35,140 nucleotides of DNA from a virus (taxonomy: Duplodnaviria > Caudoviricetes), in the IMG/VR virus record IMGVR_UViG_3300032373_000067, positions 1 to 35,140 of that record; one strand, given 5' to 3'. The notes beneath the pieces are model-generated. The model made no database searches, was not told the DNA's origin, and saw only the letters and a program-made list of their open reading frames with translations. The translations under genes were made by a program, and so were the position numbers. Below, piece by piece: positions 482 to 34,174 of this stretch; positions within the stretch are counted from its first letter, which is position 1; every line of letters begins with the position of its first letter.

Positions 482-1016
482 TAGATACAAAAAATTATTG
501 CGAGGTTTAGCAAAATTAGACCTCGCAAAAAATGGAGGAAAATTTGGAAACAAAGAAGTTGCTGAAATAATTGGAAATACTCCAGATAGTGTTAAAAGCA
601 CAACCCAACCAAATAAGGATTTTCCAAGATGGGCAAAGCTTTCGATTGTGATATATGAGTCTTTGATAAAAAAGGCTCGTAAAGAAGAGGGTAATGAGGT
701 TTATGCTCTGTTAGGCACTGTGACGGATTATTATGATAAAGCTGAAAAAACAGCATCAGAAGTAGTCGAAAAAATGGCTCGTCAAATATTACGAGAACAT
801 ACTGAACTTGACAAGTTTGTAATGGCGATGGGTACATACTTCTTTGTAGATGAAAATGACAACAACATAGATACATTTCGCTCTATTGTAAGTGGTGATT
901 TAGAAAAGGCATTTGAGCCATTGAATACCTTTATCGGTGAATGGGATGATGTTTTGAAAATTACTGGTGAGGCAATGACTTTTACAGCAGATGGTATTAA
1001 GGTTACTGAATGGTAG
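468..1016 (+). CDS. Hypothetical protein: HTH-like N-terminus fused to a cassette-borne C-terminal domain
   Basis: NKEVAEIIGNTPDSVKS resembles an HTH. The internal GTTAGGCAC (710) pairs with GTGCCTAAC (1022-1030). Confidence 0.65.
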   Translation: MNWHSRYKKLLRGLAKLDLAKNGGKFGNKEVAEIIGNTPDSVKSTTQPNKDFPRWAKLSIVIYESLIKKARKEEGNEVYALLGTVTDYYDKAEKTASEVVEKMARQILREHTELDKFVMAMGTYFFVDENDNNIDTFRSIVSGDLEKAFEPLNTFIGEWDDVLKITGEAMTFTADGIKVTEW

Positions 1017-1030
1017 CCATTGTGCCTAAC
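710..1030 (+). mobile_element. attC-like cassette body (GTTAGGCAC...GTGCCTAAC)
   Basis: Perfect 9-bp inverted core pair, followed by AAACAAAATAAAGAAAC. Confidence 0.65.
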
Positions 1031-1087
1031 AAACAAAATAAAGAAACACCGATTAAAAATTAATTAAAATAACTAAAAAAAATAATC

Positions 1088-1288
1088 ATGACAAGTAATG
1101 AATCTAAACAAATATCAGACTTAATTTGGAGTAAACTATTCTCTAAAAAAGTTATTGATATGACTAAACAAGAAGAGTTAAACGCTATTGAAAGCGTGAT
1201 AATAAGAGTAGCTCAAGAACAACGCGCAGTAGGTAGAAAACAAATACTAAACCACTTTGAAGAAGAAGTAAAAAATTTGCGAGACTAA
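1088..1288 (+). CDS. Hypothetical protein
   Basis: 66 aa ORF with an A-rich leader. Confidence 0.65.
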   Translation: MTSNESKQISDLIWSKLFSKKVIDMTKQEELNAIESVIIRVAQEQRAVGRKQILNHFEEEVKNLRD

Positions 1289-1368
1289 TGCACTACAACG
1301 CATTCGGGCATAATTAGTATTGGATTAATAAATCAAGAAACCCTATCAAATAACTAAAAAAGTAAATT

Positions 1369-1515
1369 ATGGACTTTAAAAAATTTGAATTAACAGAATC
1401 AGAAATAAATAAGCAATGTCGTATGAATTTGACACAAGCATACGCAAAAATAGACGAAGAAAATAAAATTGATAGAGAAATAAAAGAAATGTTGAGAGGT
1501 GACGAATTTGAATAA
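1369..1515 (+). CDS. Small hypothetical protein (48 aa, MDFKKFEL...)
   Basis: Translated by hand; below the ORF-track cutoff; follows the repeated leader. Confidence 0.6.
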   Translation: MDFKKFELTESEINKQCRMNLTQAYAKIDEENKIDREIKEMLRGDEFE

Positions 1516-1564
1516 TTTTTATTAATTATATATAGTTTTAGCAAACTTTTAAAAATTAGAAAAA

Positions 1565-1732
1565 ATGAACAAAATAAATCAAGTAATAAACGACAAAGAA
1601 TCATTACATAACCGTATAGATAAACGACTTACTTTAAAACTTAAACAGCAAAAAACAGAAGGTAAAAAGTTTATTACTGACGATAAAATAGATAAATTAA
1701 TAGACCAATGTATAGAAGAAGAACTGAACTAA
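1565..1732 (+). CDS. Small hypothetical protein (55 aa, MNKINQVI...)
   Basis: Translated by hand; ends just before TTGTTGCTAAC. Confidence 0.6.
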   Translation: MNKINQVINDKESLHNRIDKRLTLKLKQQKTEGKKFITDDKIDKLIDQCIEEELN

Positions 1733-1798
1733 TTTTTTATTGTTGCTAACAAACAAAATCAAGAAACCCTATCAAATAACTAAAAACCTAAAACAAAG

Positions 1799-1996
1799 AT
1801 GAAATACACAGGAAAATTTGACTCAATAGAGGCAACAGAAGAAGAAAGACTCGATCAAGAGATGGAGCAAGAAATCGAAGATCAAAGAAAGCATTTGAAA
1901 AAATACATTTCTAATTTAGAAAATTTACTCGGAAGAAAAAGAGCTAACGAGGTTTTTAGAAATATAATATACACATTAACTGAAAACATTAAGTAA
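1799..1996 (+). CDS. Hypothetical protein
   Basis: 65 aa ORF following the repeated leader. Confidence 0.65.
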   Translation: MKYTGKFDSIEATEEERLDQEMEQEIEDQRKHLKKYISNLENLLGRKRANEVFRNIIYTLTENIK

Positions 1997-2056
1997 ACGG
2001 AGTGCTAGGGTTGGAAGCCTTTAATTGTTATCAAACAAAATTTAAACAAAGATAAA

Positions 2057-2206
2057 ATGATACGATCAAGATTAGAACCAAAGCTATTCACATTTGAATA
2101 CTTTAAAAACGGAATTAAGAAAAGAACATCAGTTATATCATATTCTTTAAGAGAAGCAAGAGAATATTTCGAGACGATATACACTAATAATTACAAACTA
2201 ATTTAA
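2057..2206 (+). CDS. Small hypothetical protein (49 aa, MIRSRLEP...)
   Basis: Translated by hand; the stop is followed by TCTGTA. Confidence 0.55.
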   Translation: MIRSRLEPKLFTFEYFKNGIKKRTSVISYSLREAREYFETIYTNNYKLI

Positions 2207-2232
2207 TCTGTAATTAAAATAACAACAACGAT

Positions 2233-2508
2233 ATGAACGGACTAGAATTAATCGCAAAAGAGCGACAAGAACAAATTGAAAAACACGGTAGAACCGTTGA
2301 ACAAGACAAAGAGCTAAATCATCAACACCAATTATCTGAAGCTGCTGCATATTTAGCTTGGTATTTTATAGAGGAAGCTGATTGTAGGCACGAAGCTCCT
2401 GAAGGTTGGAATTTGGAAGTATGGCAAAAGATGCATGATAAGCCTTATGAAGAGAGATTAGTTTTAGCTGGAGCTTTAATTGCTGCTGAATTAGATCGTA
2501 TTAACTAA
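2233..2508 (+). CDS. Phage hypothetical protein (ERQEQIEKHG...AGALIAAELDR type)
   Basis: Motif pattern I recall from small phage accessory proteins; not searched. Confidence 0.8.
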   Translation: MNGLELIAKERQEQIEKHGRTVEQDKELNHQHQLSEAAAYLAWYFIEEADCRHEAPEGWNLEVWQKMHDKPYEERLVLAGALIAAELDRIN

Positions 2509-2518
2509 CCTGTAATCT

Positions 2519-2746
2519 ATGAACTACAAAGAAATACTTACAACACCTACTGAAGAACTTTTAGAAAAGAAATCTTCATTAGAAAATGAATATGAAGCAA
2601 TAGAGCATACTGTTTCAAAGATTGATGCTGAGATTTTTTACAGAAAAAATCCAGAATGTAGACCGAAACCAAATTACTGTTCGGTTTGTGGAGAAGGCGA
2701 TGATTTGCCTCAAGTAAAATGTGCAAAAGAGGATTGTCCTCATTAA
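2519..2746 (+). CDS. Hypothetical protein with Cys-rich C-terminus
   Basis: CSVC...C...CP, a possible zinc finger. Confidence 0.65.
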   Translation: MNYKEILTTPTEELLEKKSSLENEYEAIEHTVSKIDAEIFYRKNPECRPKPNYCSVCGEGDDLPQVKCAKEDCPH

Positions 2747-2771
2747 CTGTACTAATCGAAAAATCAAGAAA

Positions 2772-2999
2772 ATGACAAATAGAGACAAAATAAATGTGTT
2801 TGCCGCCAATTTATCAGAAACAGGTAAGTCTTCAATGGCAAGTGGATTAATCAAAATGTATGATGATTTAATTTTAGAGGCATCAAAATTAAACACACGT
2901 TTAAATGAAGGAAGAAACTATTTAATGCAAGTGGAGCCGTGCGACATAAGTGTTGAAAATGCTCTAATGGCGTTTGGCTGGAAATCAGACGGATATTAA
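2772..2999 (+). CDS. Hypothetical protein (start moved to ATG 2772)
   Basis: The in-frame ATG after an A-rich leader avoids overlap with the previous gene. Confidence 0.65.
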   Translation: MTNRDKINVFAANLSETGKSSMASGLIKMYDDLILEASKLNTRLNEGRNYLMQVEPCDISVENALMAFGWKSDGY

Positions 3000-3009
3000 T
3001 ACTGTTAGT

Positions 3010-3105
3010 ATGAACGAAGAGCAATTAAAACAATACATAGATCAATTATTCCATAATATGGGATTAGATCAGTTAACAAACGAAGAACTTAATAATCTGT
3101 ACTAA
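3010..3105 (+). CDS. 31-aa mini-protein, copy 1 (MNEEQLKQYIDQLFHNMGLDQLTNEELNNLY)
   Basis: Paralog at 3777 with the reading frame conserved. Confidence 0.6.
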   Translation: MNEEQLKQYIDQLFHNMGLDQLTNEELNNLY

Positions 3106-3115
3106 ACCTAATATC

Positions 3116-3292
3116 ATGGAAAAACAACAAATCAAGAAGAAGAGCTCAATTTTAATTGAAGTAGTCGACAATGGATTTATAGTAAAAGAAGATTATCAGG
3201 TAAATTTTAGAGAATCACCTGAAAGATCACATAAATCTAAAGTGTTTCAAACGAAGAAATCGTTAAATAACTATATAAACGAAAACCTTTAA
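3116..3292 (+). CDS. Small hypothetical protein (58 aa, MEKQQIKK...)
   Basis: Translated by hand; the stop is followed by TTCTGTA. Confidence 0.6.
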   Translation: MEKQQIKKKSSILIEVVDNGFIVKEDYQVNFRESPERSHKSKVFQTKKSLNNYINENL

Positions 3293-3305
3293 TTCTGTAG
3301 AAATC

Positions 3306-3518
3306 ATGTTTATAGGAAAAAAGAAAATAAAGGAGATTTCTAAACAATCATTCATTCATGAAGTGATTGAAGAAATACTTCCACCGGAAGAAAGCGAGTT
3401 TTTAAATAGCGTTCCGGAAACTTGGCAAACTCATGAAAAACTGATTTATGATTTGCTCTCTGAATTAGAACATAAATACCGAGTTGGAACAATGGAAATT
3501 ATTAATCGCAAAAAGTAA
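3306..3518 (+). CDS. Hypothetical protein
   Basis: 70 aa ORF; the stop is followed by CTGTA. Confidence 0.65.
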   Translation: MFIGKKKIKEISKQSFIHEVIEEILPPEESEFLNSVPETWQTHEKLIYDLLSELEHKYRVGTMEIINRKK

Positions 3519-3553
3519 CTGTAGGTTGAATCCTACATAAAAACAACAAAACG

Positions 3554-3775: not shown

Positions 3776-3776
3776 T

Positions 3777-3869: not shown

Positions 3870-3872
3870 GAT

Positions 3873-4344: not shown

Positions 4345-4352
4345 TAACTTTG
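4345..4352 (+). promoter_or_regulatory. -7 promoter box TAACTTTG upstream of the terminase genes
   Basis: Matches TAnnTTTG. A second copy lies at 4146-4153. Confidence 0.5.
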
Positions 4353-20702: not shown

Positions 20703-20787
20703 ACAAATATTGATTCAAATAGTAGGTACTACGTAGTTACTACGAGGTTAAAATAAAATTTTGTATTTTTGGGTAAAACCTGATAAT

Positions 20788-21399
20788 ATGATTAAAATAA
20801 CAAACGAGTGTAACATGAAATTGATGGCTAGATATCCTGATAATTATTTTGATTTAGCTATTGTAGACCCTCCTTATGGGATTAATATAAACGAAAGTAT
20901 AGGAAGAAGAAAAGGTATGAAACATAGCGGACATAAAAAAGCCGTTTGGGATAACGAAATACCAACTGAAGAATATTTTACAGAATTATTTAGAGTGTCT
21001 AAAAACCAAATTGTTTGGGGTGCTAATTACTTTAATATGCCACCAACAAAATGTTTTATTATATGGGATAAAAAATATTCTGAAGATGTTACTTTTAGTA
21101 GATATGAATATGCTTGGGCATCATTTAATAAAACAAGTAAAGGGTTTGAATTTAACGGACAAGCGAATAAAGGCAAAACACACCCAACACAAAAACCAAT
21201 AAAATTATACGAATGGATTTTAATGAATTACGCTCAAGAAGGAAATAAGATACTTGACACGCATTTAGGAAGCGGTACAATAGCAATAGCGTGTGATAAA
21301 TTAGGATTTGATTTAACAGCTTGTGAATTAGACGAAGATTATTACAAATCCGCAATGAAAAGATTAAAAGAACATCAACAGCAACTAGTAATGTTTTAA
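20788..21399 (+). CDS. DNA N6-adenine/N4-cytosine methyltransferase (beta-class motif order)
   Basis: DPPY precedes HPTQKP and LDTHLGSGT. Start moved to ATG 20788. Confidence 0.92.
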   Translation: MIKITNECNMKLMARYPDNYFDLAIVDPPYGININESIGRRKGMKHSGHKKAVWDNEIPTEEYFTELFRVSKNQIVWGANYFNMPPTKCFIIWDKKYSEDVTFSRYEYAWASFNKTSKGFEFNGQANKGKTHPTQKPIKLYEWILMNYAQEGNKILDTHLGSGTIAIACDKLGFDLTACELDEDYYKSAMKRLKEHQQQLVMF

Positions 21400-22654: not shown

Positions 22655-23155
22655 ATGAGTGATAATCCAAAACTAAGAAAAAACGGAGGAAAAGGAACTT
22701 TCTTTGGAAGAGTTTTAAAAGGAATTGGTTCTGTTGGAAAAATGGTAAGTCCTAATTTAATCGGAGCGATAACAGATGCAACAGGATTGACAGATGTAGC
22801 TGCTATAACAGGACTAATTAATAAAGAAGAAGGATTGTCTCAACAGGACAAAGAAATGCTTTTAAAAGAGCTAGAACAGGACGTTATCGAAATGCAAGAA
22901 GTTACTAAAAGATGGCAGAGCGATATGATGAGTGATAGTTGGTTGAGTAAAAACATAAGACCTTTATCATTGGCTTTTTTAACCATATCTTTATTTGTGT
23001 ATGTAATACTAGATAGTTCAATGTCTAGTTTTGAGGTAAAAAATGAATGGGTAGATTTGCTTTCTAGTTTGTTGCTGTTGGTTTATGGAGGTTACTTTGG
23101 AACTAGAGCAGTTGAAAAGATAACAAAAATACGACAGAACTCGAATAATAAGTAG
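22655..23155 (+). CDS. Holin-like membrane protein (GTA 3TM holin-like)
   Basis: RW.SD..SDSWL.KNIRP followed by TM helices and YFGTR. Confidence 0.7.
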   Translation: MSDNPKLRKNGGKGTFFGRVLKGIGSVGKMVSPNLIGAITDATGLTDVAAITGLINKEEGLSQQDKEMLLKELEQDVIEMQEVTKRWQSDMMSDSWLSKNIRPLSLAFLTISLFVYVILDSSMSSFEVKNEWVDLLSSLLLLVYGGYFGTRAVEKITKIRQNSNNK

Positions 23156-23208
23156 AAAACTATATTTTAGTTTCAGGAACAAATACAGATTAATTCTGTA
23201 ATCTTATC

Positions 23209-23239
23209 AAAAGCTTAGTGATTCGTCGCTGAGCTTTTT
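23209..23239 (+). terminator. Bidirectional terminator between convergent operons
   Basis: AAAAGCTTAGTGA-TTCG-TCGCTGAGCTTTTT. Confidence 0.85.
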
Positions 23240-23253
23240 GGGTTTTATAAAAA

Positions 23254-23520
23254 TCAGTCCGATCCTTTTTCAAAGTTTGGTATTGGTTTGCTATTATCTT
23301 TTGCTGTTTCTTCCATCATAGCTAAAAACTCATCCATTTTTTCAAGACTTGGCTTTTCTTTATTAATCTCTTCTTGTGCTATTAAGTGTAGTAAGTGCAT
23401 ATCGCTTTTAGTTACTAAACAATCAAACGCTTTACATATAGTATGTTGCATTTCAAAAGCAGCAACGCTAATAGTAAAAAATTGTTTCAGCACTTTTATT
23501 TTCTTTTGTTTTTCTGCCAT
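23254..23520 (-). CDS. Hypothetical protein
   Basis: 88 aa ORF preceded by the repeated leader. Confidence 0.7.
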   Translation of the reverse strand: MAEKQKKIKVLKQFFTISVAAFEMQHTICKAFDCLVTKSDMHLLHLIAQEEINKEKPSLEKMDEFLAMMEETAKDNSKPIPNFEKGSD

Positions 23521-23572
23521 AATTTTATTCTTTAGTTTTTATGTAGATGTACGCAATTGTGTATCCCCGTTT

Positions 23573-24045
23573 GTTAGCGTTCATTTGCCACTACTTAAAT
23601 CAGGTTCAGGAGAACCATTACGTTCTAATACATACCCATCTGAACGTAAATACTTATGTCGTTCATCTTGTTTTTTCATAACGTAATCATAAAATGCCTT
23701 ATAGCTTTTTTCATCTGACGGTTTAAACATATCTGATGCAGTATCAATATCATCTAACAACCCCCATAGTATTTTAGATATTGGTTTAAACTGATGCTCA
23801 CAAGCAGCAACATCAAGTTCTCCTGTCCATTCTATATGCTTATCATTATTTCGTGTTCCAGTTTGTACTTCTTCATCTGTGTCAGAAGCAATAAACGTAC
23901 AGTTTGTTGCTGTATTTAATAGTATTGTTTTGCCTGATTTTATCTTATTCATTTTATTTAGTTTTACTGCCAACGCTCAAAAACGAACGCTAACAAGGTT
24001 TAAAATTAATTGCTCATGCCTCACCCGAGATTTTACACAGGTAGT
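23573..24045 (-). mobile_element. attC-like cassette on the minus strand
   Basis: GTTAGCGTTCATTT (23573) pairs with AAACGAACGCTAAC (23981-23994), 13/14. The adjacent arm carries a GAGGCATGAG loop. Confidence 0.7.
23581..23952 (-). CDS. Hypothetical protein (cassette cargo; start moved to MNKIKSG)
   Basis: The ORF fills the inverted-repeat-bounded segment. Confidence 0.65.
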   Translation of the reverse strand: MNKIKSGKTILLNTATNCTFIASDTDEEVQTGTRNNDKHIEWTGELDVAACEHQFKPISKILWGLLDDIDTASDMFKPSDEKSYKAFYDYVMKKQDERHKYLRSDGYVLERNGSPEPDLSSGK

Positions 24046-24048
24046 CAC

Positions 24049-24258
24049 CTAATCATCTCTAAGCATATCCTTTAAAGAAACATTAAACAATGTAGCACAC
24101 CTCCCAAGCGTGTCAAGTGAAATCTTACCCCTTAATCTATGAGATAGTTTAGACTGGGTTAAACCTAACTTTTTAGCCAGTTCTTTATCTGTTTTTATTC
24201 CTTTCTTAGCCATGTAAAGATCTATGTTTGTGTAGGCTCTTTGTATTTTATCACTCAT
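24049..24258 (-). CDS. XRE/Cro-CI family HTH regulator
   Basis: KELAKKLGLTQSKLSHRLRG..SLDTL...A..FNVS pattern. Confidence 0.85.
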   Translation of the reverse strand: MSDKIQRAYTNIDLYMAKKGIKTDKELAKKLGLTQSKLSHRLRGKISLDTLGRCATLFNVSLKDMLRDD

Positions 24259-24273
24259 GATTTTGTTTTTATG

Positions 24274-24507
24274 TTAATAGCGGATATACATCCAGTCATT
24301 AGTTAACTCTACTAAGTTTTCTATGCTGTAATACTGCTTACAGTCTATTCCTTTGCTTGTTACTTTGGTATGATATAATTCCAAACTGCTTGAAGTTATA
24401 TCTGTTATTTGATTATCTCTTTGGTGCTTAATATCTCGTATAGTATCACTTATTTTTAAGGTTTCAAACCACCTCAAACACTTTTCTGTTTTCTCCTGTC
24501 TATTCAT
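24274..24507 (-). CDS. Hypothetical protein
   Basis: 77 aa ORF preceded by the repeated leader. Confidence 0.7.
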   Translation of the reverse strand: MNRQEKTEKCLRWFETLKISDTIRDIKHQRDNQITDITSSSLELYHTKVTSKGIDCKQYYSIENLVELTNDWMYIRY

Positions 24508-24565
24508 GATTTTATTCTTTAGTTTTTATGTGGATGTACGTAATTGTTTATGTCTCTTGTTAGCA

Positions 24566-24748
24566 TTAATAACCGCCAAGATCATGGTCTCTGCCTAAAT
24601 ACTTTAGAGGTATAGTCTTAAAATATCCTCTACTTGTTAAGAATACCGCATTAACCACCTTGTCTATTACTACGTAATTTATTATTTCACCACACAACCC
24701 TCGCAGTATATCTAAATCGTCATTACTTTCTATTACTATTGCTTTCAT
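24566..24748 (-). CDS. Hypothetical protein (start moved to MKAIVIES)
   Basis: A promoter box lies inside the longer track ORF. Confidence 0.6.
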   Translation of the reverse strand: MKAIVIESNDDLDILRGLCGEIINYVVIDKVVNAVFLTSRGYFKTIPLKYLGRDHDLGGY

Positions 24749-24771
24749 AATATTTACGTTTTTATTTACCC

Positions 24772-24861
24772 CAAAGGTAATGCTTTTTTTAATTAAATCA
24801 ATATAAAACTTCAATTAATTTGTAATTGGTATCAATTATATGAAATATTTGTGTATCTTTG
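24772..24861. promoter_or_regulatory. Divergent promoter pair
   Basis: TACCTTTG on the minus strand (24772-24779), TATCTTTG on the plus strand (24854-24861), and palindrome TAATTG-N4-CAATTA at 24823-24838. Confidence 0.7.
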
Positions 24862-24905
24862 ACGAAGTGAAACAAACGAGTATAAACAAATTAAATTTTA
24901 ACGAC

Positions 24906-25232
24906 ATGGAATTAAAAAAAGGAGATAGGGTTTACAGGTGCTACCGAGGAACGCCAACTCATGTTTTAACAATTGAAAGAACTACAAAAACACAGGCAAT
25001 AGCGAAAAATTATAAATTTAGAAAAGAATACTCCAAACACGTATACATCCGTGTTGTTGGTGAAAGTTCTTATTCTAAGGCAAGTTACTGTTTAGAAACA
25101 CCTGAGTTGAAAGCAAAACTCAGAAGAGTGAATATGATTAGAAAGTTAGAATCTGTAAAATTTAAGGATTTAGAAGATAGTAAGTTACGGGAATTACTTA
25201 ATTGTTTGAAACAATCGGACACACACAATTAA
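24906..25232 (+). CDS. Hypothetical protein (start moved to MELKKGD)
   Basis: First ATG downstream of the plus-strand promoter box. Confidence 0.7.
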   Translation: MELKKGDRVYRCYRGTPTHVLTIERTTKTQAIAKNYKFRKEYSKHVYIRVVGESSYSKASYCLETPELKAKLRRVNMIRKLESVKFKDLEDSKLRELLNCLKQSDTHN

Positions 25233-25258
25233 GCACCCACTAACATAAAGGTTTAAAA

Positions 25259-25414
25259 ATGATACAGATAAAAGACAAAGTAAATAAAACACAACTTTTT
25301 AAGGAACTCACAAAAATTGGCAAAAAAAGATTTGAGTTTACTTGTGAGCCTGATGAAGATTTAAAGGTGTTTATCGATGGAGCAGAGCAACTTTTTGAAT
25401 TATTACGACTGTAA
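25259..25414 (+). CDS. Small hypothetical protein (51 aa, MIQIKDKV...)
   Basis: Translated by hand. Confidence 0.55.
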   Translation: MIQIKDKVNKTQLFKELTKIGKKRFEFTCEPDEDLKVFIDGAEQLFELLRL

Positions 25415-25442
25415 ATAAAACACTAATTAAAAACCTATAAAA

Positions 25443-25685
25443 ATGGAACATAAAAATTACGATTTAGATTTTAAAGAAGCACTTGGCATTGTGTTAGATG
25501 GTGGTGCTGTAAAAGGACAAAACTTCGTTGATGGAGTATTTTTGAAACTTAATAGTTACGGACAATTAGTAACCGTTGATGCTGCACGATTGTATGCAGA
25601 AGATGAAAGAGTTTTTATTAAAAGATTAAACCAACAAAAGTTCCGCAACTTAACGGTTATGACCATGAAAGAGCTTTGTGGTTAA
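25443..25685 (+). CDS. Hypothetical protein
   Basis: 80 aa ORF. Confidence 0.7.
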   Translation: MEHKNYDLDFKEALGIVLDGGAVKGQNFVDGVFLKLNSYGQLVTVDAARLYAEDERVFIKRLNQQKFRNLTVMTMKELCG

Positions 25686-25781
25686 ATGGGTTATTGACTT
25701 GTTTAATAAAAATCATGTTGATTATAATGGACTCATAGAAAAAGGACTAGCAATAAACAAAAACAACGTTAAAGAATAATT

Positions 25782-26084
25782 ATGAAAGACTATAGCAAAT
25801 TAAGCAAAGAACAATTGATTGATGAATTAATTTTACTAGGAGACGAAAACCTAATACTAACCTCTTTAAATGAAGGTCTTAAAAAGAAATTAGATTCATG
25901 TGACGTTAGCAAATCGTATTCTGTTGGTCAAGAGGTGATAATTTCAGATAAAAAGCACGAACATGAATTTGAAATAGGCGAAAAAGTAACATTGCTAGAA
26001 AAGTGTGAAACTGGTGAATGGAAAGCTGTAAATGATGAAAAAGAATTCTGGTGGATCGAAGAAGATGAATTCACGCGACAATAA
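25782..26084 (+). CDS. Hypothetical protein reading through an attC-like arm (LDSCDVSKS)
   Basis: GTTAGCAAATCG at 25905. Confidence 0.7.
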   Translation: MKDYSKLSKEQLIDELILLGDENLILTSLNEGLKKKLDSCDVSKSYSVGQEVIISDKKHEHEFEIGEKVTLLEKCETGEWKAVNDEKEFWWIEEDEFTRQ

Positions 26085-26157
26085 TTTAACTTTTATTTTG
26101 ACAGTAAGGATTTAATTACTATATTGCGGTGTGCAACCACAATTAAATAAAACTAAC

Positions 26158-26493
26158 ATGAATAAAAAACTAACAATTACCGACGAATCACTTAAAGAGT
26201 TATTATCAAGATGTGTTATTGATTCCGACGTCAATCATGTAGGTATTGATTATGACAACATCTTAACAGGTGAATTATTATATGCTTACAAATGGTTTGA
26301 CGGATCGGCTCAGGAAGTTAAGATTCACTTTAACAAAAAACAAGTTGAATTAACAAACGCTCAAAAAGAAATGGTTTACGACTTCATGTATAATAGAATC
26401 AGTTTTGACGAAGAAGAAGAGTTTAACAATGATTACGATTGCGTTTCTACATTAAAAGAAATGTTTCAACACGCATTTACAGAAAGGATATAA
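26158..26493 (+). CDS. Hypothetical protein
   Basis: ATG at 26158 preferred over GTG at 26131. Confidence 0.65.
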   Translation: MNKKLTITDESLKELLSRCVIDSDVNHVGIDYDNILTGELLYAYKWFDGSAQEVKIHFNKKQVELTNAQKEMVYDFMYNRISFDEEEEFNNDYDCVSTLKEMFQHAFTERI

Positions 26494-26512
26494 AAATTAA
26501 AAATACAGCAAA

Positions 26513-26709
26513 ATGGATTTTTCAGAAAAAATAAAAACAGAATGTTTACTAAATGGAGTCAAAGTTTTTTACAACGCTTGCAGTACAAGATTAGATTTGG
26601 ATTCAGCTAAAAAGTATTATCATAATTATGAATACATAGGTAGTGAAATGTTTATTTCATAAATGGAGTAAGAAATGAAAGCAAAACTTTACATCACTTT
26701 TTTAAATAA
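26513..26709 (+). pseudogene. Small ORF, possibly frameshifted
   Basis: The 49-aa ORF stops at 26662, while an alternative frame continues NVYFINGVRNESKTLHHFFK to 26709. Confidence 0.35.
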
Positions 26710-26715
26710 GAAACT

Positions 26716-26985
26716 ATGGCATTAATAGTAGGTGAAAAAATAAGCCAAGGATTATCGAATTACATATCTCTGTACACTAATACAGACGACATAAGAGACG
26801 TATGTGATATCATGGATGTTTCTATGGAAACATTAAGATCTGTTCTAAGAAGAGATAAAAAGCTAACTGAGACGAGTAAAAAGTTAGTTTATGATGTTCT
26901 TGAAAAAGCAATAGCTAAAAGACAGCGATTAAAACCGATGTTGGATTTAGCTCATATAGAAGCAGGAAATATAATCAAAAGTTAA
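26716..26985 (+). CDS. Hypothetical HTH-like protein
   Basis: DIRDVCDIMDVSMETLRSVLRR resembles an HTH. Confidence 0.65.
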   Translation: MALIVGEKISQGLSNYISLYTNTDDIRDVCDIMDVSMETLRSVLRRDKKLTETSKKLVYDVLEKAIAKRQRLKPMLDLAHIEAGNIIKS

Positions 26986-27073
26986 GTGTTTGGGGAAACC
27001 GCCACCTCTCTCAACAACCTAAAGCGATAACGGAGAGGTGGTTTTAACGCTAAATATAAGAAACGAAAAAATT

Positions 27074-27223
27074 ATGGATCAATTACCACTAGATTACAAA
27101 GTGACAATGCTTATAGCAGATTACGAAGAACTATTAACACTCTTAGAAACTGACAAACAGAAATGGCAATGGATGATAGATGATATACAGAAGCAAATAA
27201 GTGAACAATTAAAGAAAACATAA
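27074..27223 (+). CDS. Small hypothetical protein (start moved to MDQLP)
   Basis: The upstream GTG lies within a hairpin stem. Confidence 0.6.
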   Translation: MDQLPLDYKVTMLIADYEELLTLLETDKQKWQWMIDDIQKQISEQLKKT

Positions 27224-27337
27224 AAAAATAAGGTTTGGTTAGTTTCCTTTCCCGATAGTTAAACTTACGTGACAATTCATAGCTAGTCACACAACTAAAG
27301 GGAAAGGTTTTTTAACCAACGACTAAAAACATTAACC

Positions 27338-27868
27338 ATGAGTATAAAAAAGAATCATTACAGGAAAGTATTTAAAAGCGATCATTTAGGTATTGCTGAT
27401 TTAGAAGATTTCATCGAGGAAAAAAGACCTTTATTTTTTACTATTAGCCACGTGGCACAGGAGTACGGAACAAAAGTGGCGGGTAGAAAAATAGATGCAA
27501 ATATTGCTTATTTTATTGACCCTATTAAACCAATGGTTTTAAATGCCACTAATTCTAAGATAATTAAAAAGTTTTCTGGGGGAAGTCCTTTTGTTGAAGA
27601 TTGGAAAAATATACAAATAGAACTCTATATTGACGCAAACGTGAAAATGAAAGGTGAGGTAGTAGGAGGTTTAAGAATTAGAGAGGAAGCACCTAAGCCA
27701 CTAACAGATAAAGAAATTGAAGACTTATCTAAGGATATAGACGAAGTAAAAGACTTAGGCGGTCTTTCTAAGCTTTATAACTCAAATATAAAGTATAAAA
27801 CAAATCCAGTAGTAACTGAATTATTTAGAGAACGAAATAAAGAACTACGAGCTACAGAAGCAAAATGA
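27338..27868 (+). CDS. Phage recombination-module protein (possible ssDNA-binding/annealing protein)
   Basis: KPMVLNATN and GLRIR motifs; coupled to the 5'-3' exonuclease. Function inferred from context. Confidence 0.5.
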   Translation: MSIKKNHYRKVFKSDHLGIADLEDFIEEKRPLFFTISHVAQEYGTKVAGRKIDANIAYFIDPIKPMVLNATNSKIIKKFSGGSPFVEDWKNIQIELYIDANVKMKGEVVGGLRIREEAPKPLTDKEIEDLSKDIDEVKDLGGLSKLYNSNIKYKTNPVVTELFRERNKELRATEAK

Positions 27869-28647
27869 CAGCACTAATAGATTTAGATAGTATTTTATAC
27901 AAAGCAGTTTACAAAGTTGTTTCTATTTCAGAAATGAGAGAAGCTATAAAAAACTATGGAAAAGAAGCTGCAAAGCAATGGTTAAAAGAAGAAGTTTATA
28001 ACGAAGGAATTAACCGATGTGAAAACGAACTATTAAAGATGCAGCAGTATTTATCGAGTATCTTCTTTGAAGAGATAACTAATTATGAACTATTCATTAC
28101 TACTTGTTCTAATAGTTTTAGAAAACAGATAAGCAAAACTTACAAATCTAACAGAAAAAAGAACAAATACGTATGGCTACTTAGAGAGCATTACAGGCAT
28201 AATGAGGCAAGAAGTAGTGATAGGCTAGAGGCAGATGATTTAATTGCTATAAAGGCTCAGGAAATAGGAAAAGGAAACTATATCATAGTATCAATAGATA
28301 AAGACTTAAAACAGATAGGAGGTTACTATTGGTCGTATTATAAAATCAGATCCAAAGATTCTTTTGGTGATTATATTTCTAATGAGTTTGGATTCTATGA
28401 AACTGAATACCAACAAAAACAAGTTGACTTTATAAGTGATGATGAAGCAAATAAATTCTTTTGGAGTCAAATGTTAATTGGTGACTCTTCAGATAATATA
28501 AAAGGAGTAAAAAGGATAGGAATTAAAACAGCAGAAAAAATACTAAACAATACAACTGTTCCATGGATTGCAACAGCAAGAAAATACATTGAAAAAGGAC
28601 AAAAAGAAGATTTTAAAATTAATTATCAATTATTAAAACTAGGGTAG
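27865..28647 (+). CDS. 5'-3' exonuclease (T7 gp6 / T5 FEN-like)
   Basis: LIDLD, FR...YK.NR, EADD, DKDL and GDSSDNIKGV..IG motifs. Confidence 0.88.
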   Translation: MTALIDLDSILYKAVYKVVSISEMREAIKNYGKEAAKQWLKEEVYNEGINRCENELLKMQQYLSSIFFEEITNYELFITTCSNSFRKQISKTYKSNRKKNKYVWLLREHYRHNEARSSDRLEADDLIAIKAQEIGKGNYIIVSIDKDLKQIGGYYWSYYKIRSKDSFGDYISNEFGFYETEYQQKQVDFISDDEANKFFWSQMLIGDSSDNIKGVKRIGIKTAEKILNNTTVPWIATARKYIEKGQKEDFKINYQLLKLG

Positions 28648-28740
28648 ATAAGCCTTTATAAGAACGAATTAAATTAATACTAATATTCGTATATGAGTAG
28701 AAGAAGTAAAAATAGAAGTGCAAATAATAACTAAAAAATT

Positions 28741-28983
28741 ATGATAGAACAAGATAAAAAATATGTGATTGAGGCTTTGGAATATGCTTTGCACAAATGT
28801 ATTGATGCTAATGGTAACGCTGAAACACATTACAACACTTTAGCTAATGCAATAGAGGTAGTAAAAAACTGCTCTATACCCGTTGTTGTGGGGCGAAGCG
28901 AACAGTTAAAAGCCGAACAAGAAGCTTATAATAGTGGGTATAATGATGGAGCGCAAGCTGCTGCTAATGATATATTAGGTTAG
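28741..28983 (+). CDS. Hypothetical protein reading through an attC-like arm (KNCSIPVVVGRSEQL)
   Basis: 80 aa ORF with an internal GTT core at 28885. Confidence 0.7.
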   Translation: MIEQDKKYVIEALEYALHKCIDANGNAETHYNTLANAIEVVKNCSIPVVVGRSEQLKAEQEAYNSGYNDGAQAAANDILG

Positions 28984-29005
28984 TCGGCTTTTAATTGCCT
29001 ACAAC
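28885..29005 (+). mobile_element. attC-like cassette body
   Basis: GTTGTGGGG..CAGTTAAAAGCCGA pairs with TCGGCTTTTAATTGCCTACAAC. Confidence 0.75.
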
Positions 29006-29037
29006 TAGTATTATGTGTAATTCAAAAACTTGAACTT

Positions 29038-29550
29038 ATGAAAACATTAGAGCTAGAAATATCACTTATAAAATATCTTAATCCAAGACAAAACATAATA
29101 GTTAATAATGTTAGTAATTGGTCAGGTCTTTTAAATTTTGAAGCTGATATTTTACAGCTCACAAATTCGGGCTATGCAAATGCTTATGAGTTGAAAGTAA
29201 GCAAACAAGACTTAAAGAATGACTTAAAAAAGAAGCATATAAAGAACATAAACAATACAGTTGGATTTTTTAACTATAAATCTGGTTTTGACTTTTACTA
29301 TTCGAATTTAAAAACATTTAGTTATGTTGTTCCTAGTTTTTTAGTAAACGAAGCTTTAAATCAAATTCCTTCTTTTTGCGGACTTTATGAAGCTATATCC
29401 TACGAAGGTAAGATTTATATAAACATAAAAAAACAACCTAAGATTTTGAATAAAGTAAAATGGGATGAAAAACAAAAATTGAAGTTAGCCCACTTAGGAT
29501 GTATGAGAATAGCAGGGTTAAAACAAAAAGTATTAAATCATGAAAAATAA
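29038..29550 (+). CDS. PD-(D/E)xK nuclease-like protein (MmcB-like)
   Basis: EADIL...YELKVSKQDL..D..K pattern. Confidence 0.65.
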   Translation: MKTLELEISLIKYLNPRQNIIVNNVSNWSGLLNFEADILQLTNSGYANAYELKVSKQDLKNDLKKKHIKNINNTVGFFNYKSGFDFYYSNLKTFSYVVPSFLVNEALNQIPSFCGLYEAISYEGKIYINIKKQPKILNKVKWDEKQKLKLAHLGCMRIAGLKQKVLNHEK

Positions 29551-29650
29551 AAACCTAATAAAAAACACAATAGCAGTACTTCTTTATATTACTGTAGTAG
29601 GATTTATTTCTGTTTTGTGTGTAATACCAATACTTAAATATTTTAGATAA
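29540..29650 (+). CDS. Small single-TM protein (36 aa)
   Basis: Hand translation MKNKNLIKNTIAVLLYITVVGFISVLCVIPILKYFR; overlaps both neighbours. Confidence 0.5.
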   Translation: MKNKNLIKNTIAVLLYITVVGFISVLCVIPILKYFR

Positions 29651-30084
29651 TGAAAAGCAAAGATTTTTACAAACAAACAGCATGGAAATGGTTTTCTAGA
29701 TATGTATTACTTTACTACTCTATAGACGGAGCAGTACAATGCGCAACAGGAGGGCGTTGGTATAATTGCAATGATAAATTAATGCATTGCGGACATTTAA
29801 TCAAGGTCTTCGACTCAGGCGCAAAGACTAATTTCGCGACAGCTTTTGACTTTAGAAACGTTTTACCTCAAAGTCACCAACATAACGTACATATGGGAGG
29901 TAACGAGTTAAAAATGCTTGAAGCAGTAGAAAAAATCCACGGAAAAGGAACGTACGAAGAGTTAAAACAAAAAGCTAGATTTCCTTTTAGATTAGACGCT
30001 CCTACTCTTATGGAGATATCTTACAAGTATAGAATTAAATTCAACGAACTAGCAAAGACTAAAGGAAACCCCTGGAAGGGTTAA
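29650..30084 (+). CDS. NinG/Rap-like recombination endonuclease
   Basis: FSRY, C.T.G, HCGH, FD.RN..PQ...N and G..Y.EL pattern. Confidence 0.75.
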   Translation: MKSKDFYKQTAWKWFSRYVLLYYSIDGAVQCATGGRWYNCNDKLMHCGHLIKVFDSGAKTNFATAFDFRNVLPQSHQHNVHMGGNELKMLEAVEKIHGKGTYEELKQKARFPFRLDAPTLMEISYKYRIKFNELAKTKGNPWKG

Positions 30085-30383
30085 CGGCTACCGTGTATGG
30101 AATCGGTTTTTAACGGATAAATAGAACAAAATGGAAATAGATTACGACAAAGATTTAAAAAAGGTAATGACTGAACTACAAACCAATTTTGGGTGGGGCA
30201 ACATTGAAGTATTACCCGACAGTTATAAAGACTTACTGAATGATACGATAAAGGCAGTTAAAAACTGTTCTATACACGATGTTAGCGTTTCGTTTGATAA
30301 TGGTTACGACTTAGGTTACAAAGATGCAACAAGTGAGGCTTGTAAGGAAATTGAAAAGAATTACAGACCAAATGAACTCTAAC
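30082..30383 (+). mobile_element. Complete single attC-like cassette
   Basis: Arm 30082-30116 pairs with 30255-30284; GTTAGCGTTTCGTTTG pairs with CAAATGAACTCTAAC. Confidence 0.8.
30131..30382 (+). CDS. Hypothetical protein (cassette cargo, KNCSIHDVSVS)
   Basis: Starts in the hairpin loop; its stop TAA is part of the TAAC core. Confidence 0.75.
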   Translation: MEIDYDKDLKKVMTELQTNFGWGNIEVLPDSYKDLLNDTIKAVKNCSIHDVSVSFDNGYDLGYKDATSEACKEIEKNYRPNEL

Positions 30384-30431
30384 AAGCGCAAATACGAAAT
30401 CACGTATATGCAAATAACAACTAAAAACAAA

Positions 30432-30594
30432 TAAATTAAAAGAGGTTAAAAATGCAGAAATTAGTGGGTTTACCAACAGCAGAAAAGATAGTAAAATTGA
30501 AGGTGTCCAAAGCCTGTTTTCTGTTCCTTCCGTGGGGGCTTCGGCTTGACCCGAAAGGAATAACGGATAGTTGGGCTGCGCCTCTTTTAATTTA
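30432..30594 (+). ncRNA. Candidate structured RNA
   Basis: 14-bp perfect closing stem, GC-rich interior, and a C-TTCG-G tetraloop hairpin. Confidence 0.5.
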
Positions 30595-30612
30595 ATTATT
30601 AAATAAAAAGAC

Positions 30613-30873
30613 ATGAATACATCATCACAATTAGCAAAGAAACGGTTTGACTCTTCAGGTAAGAAGGAAAACCATTACAAAAGAATATTAAAAGCTTTAA
30701 AAGAACTTAAAAACGGATGTTCTAAGGCAATAGCAGAAAAATGTGGACTAGACTATCATCAGGTATCTAGGAGGCTTCCAGAATTAGAGAAAAAAGGAAA
30801 GATTGAAGTTTTAGAAACAGCTAAAACAAAGTATTATGAAACGTCTGTTAATATTTATCAAATAGTAGGTTAG
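30613..30873 (+). CDS. Winged-helix DNA-binding protein
   Basis: IAEKCGLDYHQVSRRLPELEKKGKI. Confidence 0.8.
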   Translation: MNTSSQLAKKRFDSSGKKENHYKRILKALKELKNGCSKAIAEKCGLDYHQVSRRLPELEKKGKIEVLETAKTKYYETSVNIYQIVG

Positions 30874-30875
30874 TT

Positions 30876-31304
30876 ATGGAGTTAATCACACACGAGTTTA
30901 TAAAAAAAACTGTTCAAGAAGTTTCAGGAATAAAAGACCTTTCAGAATGCAAAAGAGATAAAGAATATCCTTTAACTAGATACGTTGCATTTAGATTAAG
31001 TAGAGATTACTTGCCAAAACAAATAAATACTCTTGAATCAATCGCAAAATGTTACGGATTAAAAAACCACGCTACAGTATTGACAGGTATTAATAAGTTC
31101 AATGAATTTAAAAAACAACCATTCTTTAAACCATATTTAAAAGTTTATCAGTTGTCAAATATGGTAATAAACAATCACATAAAAGGAATCTTAGATGATA
31201 TAATAAAGGTTAGTGATTTCAATAAATCAAATACAGATCAAGAGTTAAAAGAATCGATTGATAAAATACTTAATTTTATAAATAATTTCTATGTTTTTAA
31301 CTGA
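30876..31304 (+). CDS. DnaA domain IV-like HTH protein
   Basis: R.KE...R, TLESIA and KNHATVL resemble the DnaA C-terminal signature. Confidence 0.7.
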   Translation: MELITHEFIKKTVQEVSGIKDLSECKRDKEYPLTRYVAFRLSRDYLPKQINTLESIAKCYGLKNHATVLTGINKFNEFKKQPFFKPYLKVYQLSNMVINNHIKGILDDIIKVSDFNKSNTDQELKESIDKILNFINNFYVFN

Positions 31305-31331
31305 GAACGTTTGATATTAAAAAATAAATTG

Positions 31332-31437
31332 TATCTTTGTGTATAGTTTCGTGGTGCAATTTAAGGAACTAATTAAAAAGATATAAACTCTTAATGCGGA
31401 TAGGATTGCACCCCTTGAAGCGTTAAGAGTTTTTTTT
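31332..31437 (+). promoter_or_regulatory. Promoter plus two-hairpin leader/attenuator upstream of the replication gene
   Basis: TATCTTTG at 31332; hairpin 31344-31371; terminator-like stem 31385-31432 with a T tract. Confidence 0.65.
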
Positions 31438-31447
31438 ATACTTTATA

Positions 31448-32203
31448 ATGGCTAGACCAGAAAAAAATACAGTTGAATATTTTCCTTTTTTATGTGATGA
31501 AGGTAAAAAAATGTTTTACATAGAGGAAACTTACGGAAATGATGGGTTTTCTACGTTTATAAAAATACTTAGAGAACTAGCTAAAACAGATTATCATTAC
31601 TTGAACCTATCTAAAAACACTACATTAATGTTTTTATCTGCTAAATGTAAAGTAAGTAAAGAAACTTTAGAATCTATCATAAAAGATCTAGTTGAATTAG
31701 AAAAGTTTGACAGGGTTCTTTGGTATGAAAATAAAGTAGTTTGGTGTCAAGATTTTGTAGATAGTATTCAAGACGCATATAATAAGAGAAAAAATAAATG
31801 TATAACTTATGAGGGTTTAATACTACATTTAATTAGTTTAGGGGTGCGGAAACCTAATAAAAGTAAACTTAAAGTACCTGTAAATACACAAACTATACTA
31901 GAAGAAACTAAAGTATATAAAACTATAGAAGATAGAAAGCGTGAATTTTACAATTCACTTATTCCATTTTTAAAAATTTACAGTAAAGAAATTATAAAAG
32001 AATTTTATGAGTATTGGAGTGAACATGGAGACAAAGACCGTAAATTTAGAAAAGAAAAGGAAAAAAGCTTCAATACATCTCTTAGGCTTAAAAAATGGTT
32101 TAAAAACTCAAAAGAATGGAAAAAAGAAAAAAGTTCCGTTAAAAAAGAAAAGAAAGACGCTTCCGACATATTACTAGAGAGATACGGAGTAACTAAAAAT
32201 TAA
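31448..32203 (+). CDS. Replication initiator (DUF4373 / Lin1244-like N-terminus)
   Basis: MARP.K..VEYFP and IE..YG..G at the N-terminus; C-terminal FYEYWSE...RL..W. Confidence 0.7.
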   Translation: MARPEKNTVEYFPFLCDEGKKMFYIEETYGNDGFSTFIKILRELAKTDYHYLNLSKNTTLMFLSAKCKVSKETLESIIKDLVELEKFDRVLWYENKVVWCQDFVDSIQDAYNKRKNKCITYEGLILHLISLGVRKPNKSKLKVPVNTQTILEETKVYKTIEDRKREFYNSLIPFLKIYSKEIIKEFYEYWSEHGDKDRKFRKEKEKSFNTSLRLKKWFKNSKEWKKEKSSVKKEKKDASDILLERYGVTKN

Positions 32204-32215
32204 AAGAAGTAGAAA

Positions 32216-32425
32216 ATGAAAAGACTTATTAAATACTTAAAAAAGCTATTTGCTATATACATTTTTAGGCGTAGTTATTGGATAATTTACCAAACACGAT
32301 ATGACGAAAAAGTATATTATACTAAGGATAGTATGTGGACAACAGACATAGGTAAGGCAACAAGATACAAGGAACACCCGAAACTTTTTTGGATGGGTAT
32401 AGACCATTTAACAATGAAAGTATAA
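32216..32425 (+). CDS. Hypothetical protein (cassette cargo)
   Basis: Reads through a degenerate arm (LFAIYIFRRS). Confidence 0.6.
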   Translation: MKRLIKYLKKLFAIYIFRRSYWIIYQTRYDEKVYYTKDSMWTTDIGKATRYKEHPKLFWMGIDHLTMKV

Positions 32426-32476
32426 TTACGCCTAACGGACGAGTATATGAAACGAACGACTTAAAAAGACCAAATT

Positions 32477-32695
32477 ATGATCCAAGAACTGAATAAATTA
32501 AAACGCTCAATAAAAGCAGCCGACCCAACACTACAAGACGAAGTTATATGCGACTTGCATAAACAAGTAACAGCTATAATTAAGAATGCAAAACGCTCTG
32601 AAAAAGTAAACCACTTATACGGACTTTATTTTGATAAAACTTATGGTGATGGTTTATCTGCGGAAGAGGCTGCGACAGATTTAGGACTGACCTAA
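32477..32695 (+). CDS. Hypothetical protein located entirely in an attC-like loop
   Basis: Bounded by arms 32433-32463 and 32693-32717. Confidence 0.7.
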   Translation: MIQELNKLKRSIKAADPTLQDEVICDLHKQVTAIIKNAKRSEKVNHLYGLYFDKTYGDGLSAEEAATDLGLT

Positions 32696-32847
32696 GTTTG
32701 TTTTATATACTGTGTTGTGCTTAGCGAAGTGGCGTTTTAATGAAGCACAACGTATGGTTATATGGTTTCGTTGTGAGGTACGAGCAATGAACTATATAAC
32801 GTGTTACCTACTGTATTTGCGTTAATTAAGAACTAAAGTAAATTAAA

Positions 32848-33978
32848 ATGACAGAAGTAAAAAAAAATAAAAAGGGCGTGGCTTTGCAAAAGCCAAATAA
32901 CACGCAACACAAGTTTCCGTATGAGTGGACTTTAAAAGATGCTAACTTTACAAAAGACAAAGGAACTGTATTTAGTTGCTTTGCTTGTGGTGGTGGTTCA
33001 ACTATGGGTTACAAACTTGCGGGATTTGATGTGTTAGGATGCAATGAAATTGACCCTAAAATGATTGAAGCATATAAAACAAACCATAAACCTAAATATG
33101 CTTATTTAGAGCCTATACAAACTTTTAAATTAAGAAAAGACTTACCAAAAGAATTATACAATTTAGATATTTTGGATGGTTCGCCACCTTGTAGCAGTTT
33201 TAGTATGGCTGGAAATAGAGAAAAAGATTGGGGAAAAGAAAAGAAATTTAGAGAAGGACAAGCTGAACAAACTTTAGATACTTTGTTTTTTGACTTTATT
33301 GACCTTGCAAAAGAATTACAACCAAAAGTAGTAGTTGCAGAAAATGTAAGTGGTTTAATGATGGGTTCAGCAAAAGATTACGTAAAAAAGATTTATAAAG
33401 AATTTCAAAAAGCGGGTTATCAATTAAGAATTGAACCCTATTTATTGGATTCTTCAAAAATGGGTGTACCTCAAAAACGTAGGCGTGTTTTCTTTATTGC
33501 AATACGAAATGATTTATCTAATCAATTTATGGAACAAGTGGATATGTTTCAAGTAGCTCCTAAATTAGATTTAACATTTAATGAACCACCAATTAATTTC
33601 AGAAAGATATATGATGGAAAAGGTAAACCAATAACAGATTATAAATTACAAGCGTGGAAACATAGAAAAATAACAGATAAAGGTATTGCAGACAGTAAGA
33701 AACACGCAGGAATGAAAGTAAGCGACTTTAATCACGTTTATTTATTTATGGATAAAGTAATGCCAACTATAACTGGGAAAGCTGAACACGCTATGTCATT
33801 ATTTAATGAACCAATAAAACCAAGTGATACGGAATTAAGAAAAGGCGGAACTTACCCTTTAGACTATAAATATGATGGAAGTATTGGTTATTTGGTAGGA
33901 ATGAGCGTACCACCTGTAATGACAGCGCAAATATCAACAAAGATTTATGAGCAATGGTTATCTAAATTGCTGACGTAG
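32848..33978 (+). CDS. DNA (cytosine-5) methyltransferase
   Basis: FACGGG (motif I), GSPPC (IV), ENV (VI), Q.R.R.F (VIII), GMSVPP (X). Confidence 0.93.
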   Translation: MTEVKKNKKGVALQKPNNTQHKFPYEWTLKDANFTKDKGTVFSCFACGGGSTMGYKLAGFDVLGCNEIDPKMIEAYKTNHKPKYAYLEPIQTFKLRKDLPKELYNLDILDGSPPCSSFSMAGNREKDWGKEKKFREGQAEQTLDTLFFDFIDLAKELQPKVVVAENVSGLMMGSAKDYVKKIYKEFQKAGYQLRIEPYLLDSSKMGVPQKRRRVFFIAIRNDLSNQFMEQVDMFQVAPKLDLTFNEPPINFRKIYDGKGKPITDYKLQAWKHRKITDKGIADSKKHAGMKVSDFNHVYLFMDKVMPTITGKAEHAMSLFNEPIKPSDTELRKGGTYPLDYKYDGSIGYLVGMSVPPVMTAQISTKIYEQWLSKLLT

Positions 33979-34174
33979 GAAGCAAAACGCCCTTTTTATT
34001 TTTTTTGGGTTTAACAATGAACTTTATTAAAAGGTAGAAAGTAAGCCAATATTGTAGGTAACACCAAGATAAGATTTGTGAGGCACGAAATGAATTTTAT
34101 CGACTGTTGAAAAGAGTATGACGCAGCTTGAAAAGCGAGTAATATTCGTTTAAAAAATTAAAATTAAATAAAAA

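Follow-up and report, generated by a model that had tools for sequence, protein, structure and literature searches.

We analysed a viral DNA stretch of 35,140 nucleotides (IMG/VR record IMGVR_UViG_3300032373_000067, positions 1 to 35,140), the whole of which is called here the window. It is a complete, circularly permuted phage genome of 35,047 bp with an end repeat of 93 nt (direct terminal repeats, 100% complete). The window contains candidate hairpin-plus-body units that appear to be swappable parts of an integron-like system of Bacteroidota, whose tyrosine recombinase is likely supplied in trans by the host or a co-infecting phage. We put the probability of this reading, which rests on sequence comparison, at about 0.78. 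The predicted unit has the form C-arm-loop-arm-GTTcore-body-coreAA, and alignments show that relatives gain, lose and reorder such units at the TAAC foot.

Five loci of the window show the layout TAAC-left arm-loop-right arm-GTTcore-body-coreAAC, and three further ones are weak. According to a preliminary description of the sequence, the five were clear and shared this layout. Units were indeed found at all five, but only three hairpins are intact and the others are damaged. The weak loci comprise one decayed fit, one probably decayed hairpin and one unsupported candidate. The elements are listed below (ORF, open reading frame; z, folding z-score); joints between window positions, loose ends and contig ends are those in contigs of relatives from public runs.

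692 to 709, plus strand: degenerate left core TAAT (692-695) with a right-arm remnant, the left arm being lost; joint 698->1025 in two runs, and contig L228.
710 to 1030, plus strand: cassette body with complementary offset cores of 9 bp (710/1030), assigned by core pairing.
1031 to 1050, plus strand: terminal attI-like half-site with no arm after it and a near-copy at 1751-1770; joints 1046->1752 and 1059->1755 in one run.
1297 to 1750, plus strand: decayed unit, assigned by sequence, with a hairpin at about 1297-1539 (ORF 1369-1515 in the loop) and a body at 1537-1750 (ORF 1565-1732); the core at 1537 reads TTT, and the unit is below the arm-scan threshold.
23992 to 24043, minus strand: short hairpin of a conserved-loop family, assigned by alignment, with a degenerate left core TAC (24041); loose end at 23991 and joint to 24044.
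23573 to 23994, minus strand: body with 10-bp offset cores (23573/23994) and ORF 23973-23581; contig end at 23571, and a terminal half-site from 23572 downwards.
25056 to 25244, plus strand: weak locus, unsupported as a cassette; relatives branch off at the TAAC 25241-25244.
25765 to 25907, plus strand: probably a decayed hairpin; the GTT is codon 42 of ORF 25782-26084, whose match to PHROG 10201 begins at residue 44.
28682 to 28887, plus strand: hairpin whose left core is degenerate (TAAT, 28684); ORF 28741-28983 begins here and has its N half here; two runs show joint 28683->29000.
28885 to 29005, plus strand: body encoding the C half of ORF 28741-28983; its ends pair for 14 bp further (z -3.19).
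30083 to 30283, plus strand: intact hairpin, the AAC overlapping the stop codon of a NinG-like gene; loop and right arm encode the N half (51 aa) of ORF 30131-30382, start codon included; joint 30086->30398 in two runs.
30281 to 30383, plus strand: body encoding the C half of ORF 30131-30382; terminal half-site from 30384.
32216 to 32436, plus strand: decayed unit, ORF 32216-32425 crossing a core that reads TTT (32264), with a matching end at 32427-32436; contig end at 32265 and loose ends at 32215 and 32276.
32434 to 32716, plus strand: intact hairpin with a whole 72-aa ORF (32477-32695) inside the loop.
32714 to 32751, plus strand: gene-less 38-bp body with offset cores of 9 bp (32714/32751; z -2.62).
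32749 to 32805, plus strand: intact short hairpin, assigned by arm scan.
32803 to 34062, plus strand: body with a C5 DNA methyltransferase gene (32848-33978) and 9-bp offset cores (32803/34062); joint 32755->34059 in one run.
34060 to 34108, plus strand: short hairpin with spacer 5/4, assigned by sequence; decayed end, no downstream body end matching it.

As had been claimed, the GTT core pairs with the next downstream AAC core (710/1030, 23573/23994, 32714/32751, 32803/34062). Because the left arm at 692-709 is lost, ORF 468-1016 is an in-frame fusion of the upstream gene with the cassette body. Peculiar to the window are its scattered one-unit loci, several in number and each followed by a terminal half-site, and a gene wholly within a 277-nt loop followed by an empty 38-bp body. 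Many of its sites are decayed, which suggests that exchange is occasional and that units then age in place. Locus 25056-25244 was rejected as a cassette, as the left arm is absent and one PHROG family spans the junction (residues 24-127). The methyltransferase body contains a perfect 20-bp inverted repeat (32860-32879/33987-34006). Shorter kin of this repeat form the body ends in the phages phi18:3 and P12002L, and thus an older body seems to be nested in a newer one.

The arm scan used fixed spacing (4-7 nt after AAC, 2-4 nt before GTT), a geometry that was picked after the sites had been seen. The three intact hairpins score 27 (30083-30283), 26 (32434-32716) and 25 (32749-32805), and a score of 25 was reached in none of 12 block shuffles; at score 21, there are six matches in the window and 0-5 per shuffle. 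The structural block at 4.4-23.2 kb contains only two matches, both at background level and neither convincing, and thus the "genome-wide" spread of the preliminary description was too wide. The comparison with shuffles and structural genes suggested there favours the arms, but not the offset cores, which taken alone are common: perfect ones of at least 8 bp form 44 pairs genome-wide, many in structural genes. Offset core complementarity alone was rejected as a site criterion since it is not separable from background, and so was unconstrained arm energy, which does not discriminate sites.

Contigs of four public runs were compared with window positions 22800-35140 and 94-2600. The content between predicted feet is replaced at the joints 698->1025, 28683->29000, 30086->30398 and 32755->34059. 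In relative contig L228, identity extends over 656-698 and 1025-2041, with a different complete unit in between. At the loose end 23991, the hairpin 23992-24043 is joined to another body. Metagenome searches with the terminal motif yielded eight matches: two loci of one relative (L227/L228), two from the window's own record, and four with the motif only.

Flavobacterium phage tooticki6-1 and Cellulophaga phage phi18:3 both carry the window's methyltransferase gene, in each case within a tandem array laid out like the units of the window. In eight Muminvirus/Lillamyvirus regions, 45 of 64 breakpoint rows, which were counted by hand and share junctions, lie in the array: 28 at TAAC, five at the GTT foot, and 12 in arms, loops or genes. 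The shared sequence often stops 0-3 nt from TAAC, and the arms beyond are unrelated. Twelve arrays of Baltic Flavobacterium phages were parsed into 150 units, 128 of them with an offset core of 9-10 bp. Single units are cleanly gained or lost among these arrays; the first units are common and the last ones variable. Among 24 repeated hairpin types, two have more than one downstream body and six more than one upstream body, and a hairpin travels with its downstream body. A few bodies have alternative hairpins; one body occurs with two hairpins whose arms are different, yet each is self-complementary. The claim of cassette-like units exchanged at the AAC foot on the coding strand is borne out by these breakpoints, the joints, L228 and the single-unit gains and losses.

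Hairpins of the same kind form long arrays in chromosomes of Flavobacteriaceae. The left-arm pattern alone matched at least 139 GTDB stretches and 62 viral contigs; almost all of the 80 listed stretches belong to Bacteroidota. We estimate that about 1300 genome stretches match one arm pattern. An exact 30-base pattern of the short hairpin had no GTDB match. A complementary right arm follows the left-arm match at 77 of 83 host and 41 of 51 viral judgeable sites, with 70 host and five viral sites at locus edges set aside. The right spacer is 2 nt and the geometry 5-6/2 at 77/77 host and 40/41 viral sites. Neighbouring sites share an offset core of at least 7 bp in 209/239 host and 61/91 phage cases, compared with 14/218 and 2/61 for shuffled partners. 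The AAC strand is the better pairing one at 345 of 348 host and 126 of 147 phage sites. The stems are paired 16/16 without gaps or extrahelical bases at 70/87 host and 41/53 viral sites; a minority of sites have one bulged T on the 5' arm. In one host array (L034:4551-16248), the units carry multi-gene blocks that look like restriction-modification systems, named by inspection of N-terminal sequences.

The genes downstream of host sites are antisense to the AAC strand in 70 cases, sense in none, and absent in seven. In viruses, 24 are sense, one is antisense, and 16 sites have none. Phage genes are thus inverted relative to host genes, and since they lie on the opposite strand, start codon and N half often come from the loop. 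Indeed, an ORF starting in the loop and crossing the GTT occurs at 14 of 41 viral sites, as against two of 77 host sites; the earlier observation of genes beginning in the hairpin loop and continuing through its right arm is supported. In the phage array L198, a gene of host polarity (L198:3368-4128) adjoins a 266-aa recombinase, which suggests that phages capture host cassettes. It had been proposed that body ends generally pair further than the 9-10 bp core; this was rejected as such pairing is not enriched (host -5.25 vs control -5.35 kcal/mol, virus -6.39 vs -6.12), with controls that share recurrent body-end motifs and may hide a weak effect. Since such pairing is not general, the proposed dumbbell circle is limited to single units such as 28885-29005 (z -3.2).

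Of 118 sequences compared for ORF 30131-30382 (including the query), 102 have valine at the GTT codon, and the tails of these form 53 clusters. Many C halves among these tails (P0001-P0120) are short, cysteine-rich and zinc-ribbon-like. Among 29 homologues of ORF 28741-28983, 22 share only the N half, six only the C half and one both, the junction being the GTT codon (Val49); the searches are biased to N-half sharers, and junctions are placed at the protein, not the DNA, level. In the six C-half sharers, divergence continues as far as the GTT codon, a point in favour of exchange at the foot and against exchange within long homology. The GTT foot is a second exchange point, at which these two window ORFs swap N and C halves; through the exchange of units, the beginnings and ends of small proteins are likely recombined into new pairs.

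No integrase was found among the 70 window ORFs (PHROGs), and a six-frame search of the window with PF00589 was negative (14 of 14 controls detected), in agreement with the preliminary description. On the other hand, tyrosine recombinase genes are located at seven host and two viral array loci. The proteins have 355-454 aa in hosts and 266 aa in phages. NF040815 is the best match; with TIGR02249 all nine score 121-213 bits, under its cut-off of 265, and the match is split. The 266-aa form, which has many close relatives, is about 48 residues shorter than IntI4, residues 179-214 spanning IntI4 182-265 (the insertion region). The array-associated recombinase thus lacks the IntI insertion, which is described as essential for integron function in the available part of PMC8138268. 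In 8/8 arrays examined, the last offset core is succeeded by a half-site that has no arm, a candidate attI-like site at a distance of 41-148 nt from the recombinase gene. By eye, the window terminal sequences at 23572 and 30384 resemble the host half-site, those at 1031 and 1751 less so. At loci chosen by the protein, a site with a matched core is present within 1.5 kb in 13 of 29 family members, always 3' of the gene, and in none of 20 Xer-like loci. The family was found in 65 of 81 sampled genomes (hand count, E<=1e-50). The host arrays with a non-IntI recombinase, the inverted polarity of phage genes and the exchange at the GTT foot had been missed in the preliminary description.

These observations are consistent with the following mechanism. 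The AAC-bearing strand would fold into a core box of 9-10 bp, an asymmetric 5-6/2 bulge and a stem of about 16 bp with G.T wobbles, and would be cut at AA|C. Excised units would circularise and enter attI-like TAAC half-sites, of which the window phage would have several. Either the host chromosome or a co-infecting phage would provide the enzyme in trans. Less frequent use of the other strand would place the exchange at G|TT and create new fusions of proteins. Methyltransferase units likely act against host restriction. A wider proposal, which we hold at even odds, is that a second integron-like system is widespread in Bacteroidota, its recombinase being simpler and its hairpins defined by their bulge. 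In phages, its polarity would be reversed, making the hairpin (start and N half) and the body (C half) independent modules; both feet would recombine, and phage populations with no enzyme of their own would assemble small proteins combinatorially, as a library distributed over several attI-like sites.

One could suggest instead that units are swapped at conserved arms and cores by homologous or microhomology recombination, involving host RecA or a phage annealing protein, and that the hairpins are relics or regulatory signals. Indeed, the phage encodes exonuclease and NinG-like recombination genes (PHROGs), other window genes are swapped at start or stop boundaries or at 6-7 nt of microhomology with no AAC foot (154->467, 24250->24505, 25780->26080, 29022->29524), and the 12 in-array breakpoint rows away from the feet would fit as well. 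However, this explanation seems unlikely given the abrupt ends of shared sequence near TAAC with unrelated arms beyond, the divergence of the six C-half sharers up to the GTT codon, the offset cores matched unit by unit, the body with two different self-complementary hairpins, and the dedicated recombinase adjoining host arrays. Even less probable is that these are ordinary attC sites, as in clusters of attC sites lacking integrases (CALINs), moved by a classical IntI from some other bacterium. The core logic is alike, and IntI1 recombined P12002L_attC2 (PMC9892861), which maps here to an array terminal half-site cut at the matching AA|C. However, P12002L_attC1, a full site of the window's family, gave no verified recombinant with IntI1 as tested (PMC9892861); the adjacent recombinases fall short of IntI in score and length; most stems have no extrahelical base; and complete integrons are almost absent from Bacteroidetes in the available part of the IntegronFinder 2.0 report. 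Chance patterns in AT-rich DNA, or RNA structures for translation control, are the least plausible explanation of the window. They would agree with the abundance of offset-core pairs, the non-discriminating arm energies and the weak folding z-scores, but not with the arm scan, the predicted right arms, the matched cores and the gain and loss of whole units; neither the window nor five array loci had a credible Rfam match. This explanation is already largely refuted by the exchange of units at the feet in relatives.

Several observations weigh against recombination of hairpin-body units by a recombinase in trans. Half of the window's sites are decayed. When folded in isolation, the short window hairpins do not exceed shuffles in stability (z -1.0, -0.8, -0.5). 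Only ten of 42 listed joint ends (24%; 15 of 39 joints being listed in one of the comparisons) are within 6 nt of a predicted foot, where chance gives 1.2% for the 14 feet and 11.7% of positions are that near any YAAC. One of the 14 feet (695) was named after its joint had been seen. No empty allele of the window's own dispersed loci was seen in the relatives' contigs, the intervening sequence being "not known" in most joints; nor were circle junctions, both of which the preliminary description had proposed to seek. The compared phage genomes are close kin, and the counts are not independent. There is no site within 1.5 kb at 15 of 29 recombinase loci (five with less than 300 nt downstream), and the identity of the acting recombinase rests on adjacency to arrays.

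The phage itself is a flavobacterial siphovirus: the matching DNA records are mostly Flavobacterium, Polaribacter and Cellulophaga phages (59 of 71, BLAST), and head and tail genes occupy about 4.4-23.2 kb, with early and middle genes outside (PHROGs). IMG/VR protein searches with four core genes retrieved only distant relatives (44-77% identity), unusable for breakpoints. A repressor-like gene with a helix-turn-helix motif (24049-24258, minus strand) is present in this phage, which has no integrase and may be lytic or plasmid-like. A second DNA methyltransferase gene (20761-21399) is located between tail and lysis genes and has no convincing cassette sites. Direct repeats of 96 nt (3006-3101/3773-3868), 47 nt (23518-23564/24505-24551) and 37 nt (1330-1366/1756-1792), in the range of 91-95% identity, lie upstream of small early genes, and some are exchange points in relatives. 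The 170-aa gene 29038-29550, with a weak PHROG match to DNA repair, is missing from relatives, its joints showing 6-7 nt of microhomology, and is apparently mobile by a route other than AAC feet. Joints 24547->24758/24762 fall on AAC triplets flanking gene 24566-24749; arms are not visible, and the region 24546-24760 (minus strand) is possibly a fully decayed unit.

Flavo-1 is a repeated hairpin of Flavobacteriaceae. It is unrelated to the sites considered here: the motif (RF01705) differs in sequence and is dispersed according to the available parts of PMC2864571 and PMC9723704, and has no match in five array-bearing loci or the window. Closer is the CALIN of Polaribacter phage P12002L, where two sites in "divergent directions" were named classical attC, with no integrase and with flanked DNA methyltransferases (Qi et al. 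2023, PMC9892861). Like the window, this is a flavobacterial phage with attC-like sites, methyltransferases and no integrase, and its sites belong to the window's family: the short hairpin 32749-32805 differs from a P12002L site by one mismatch in the 51 nt between feet (window 32752-32802). However, by eye the P12002L stretch contains at least five hairpins of a single polarity, and P12002L_attC2 maps to the array terminal half-site on the other strand, assuming that the published forward oligos are top strands. Host arrays, starts encoded in the loop, swaps of protein halves, inverted gene polarity and a recombinase other than IntI are absent from the available text of PMC9892861. Beyond these two sites, we found no published description of the Bacteroidota system, subscription journals and bioRxiv supplements being outside our coverage. 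In another phage study, methyltransferase presence or absence correlates with plating efficiency; its available text names no mechanism and does not contain the words "integron" or "cassette" (PMC7077304). Exchange of units would explain this pattern. Cultured phage-host pairs exist for this system. Loot et al. 2024 reportedly describe attG secondary sites, with cassettes at dispersed genomic positions outside one array. The dispersed cassettes of the window are similar, but its terminal half-sites look like the attI-like sequence of hosts, and IntI is not the basis of the system.

Bacteroidetes have been regarded as nearly integron-free, with one complete integron listed in the available part of the IntegronFinder 2.0 report, yet an estimated 1300 or so genome stretches carry the arm pattern, and the candidate recombinase occurs in 65 of 81 genomes of one family. 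The spacers of classical attC sites are about 6/5 nt; here they are 5-6/2. As in classical integrons, there are offset cores of the RYYYAAC/GTTRRRY type with inverted AAC and GTT, imperfect hairpins with one better-folding strand (the short window hairpins not exceeding shuffles), gain and loss of cassettes at the core both in relatives and in phage arrays, and an attI-like array end, putative in function, beside a tyrosine recombinase, with variation concentrated there (compared with the available parts of PMC3053210, PMC11023631 and PMC8138268). Unlike them, the window has no IntI gene in cis, none of the nine array-associated recombinases has the insertion in the catalytic domain, the core box has 9-10 bp, and the two extrahelical bases (T-N6-G type) of a folded bottom strand are not obligatory (PMC3053210, available part). 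Host arrays are mostly 3' of the recombinase gene and co-oriented with it. ORFs between sites are on the top strand in hosts (70 vs 0), whereas in phages they are on the cleaved strand (1 vs 24) and span the site (14 of 41). The purpose of the IntI insertion could be tested with a recombinase that lacks it and acts on hairpins free of extrahelical bases, and hairpin-body exchange would be a visible route to the origin of cassettes and new small genes. Judged from the sequences, the window system works like an integron but is not a member of that class by its recombinase, extrahelical bases and spacer geometry.

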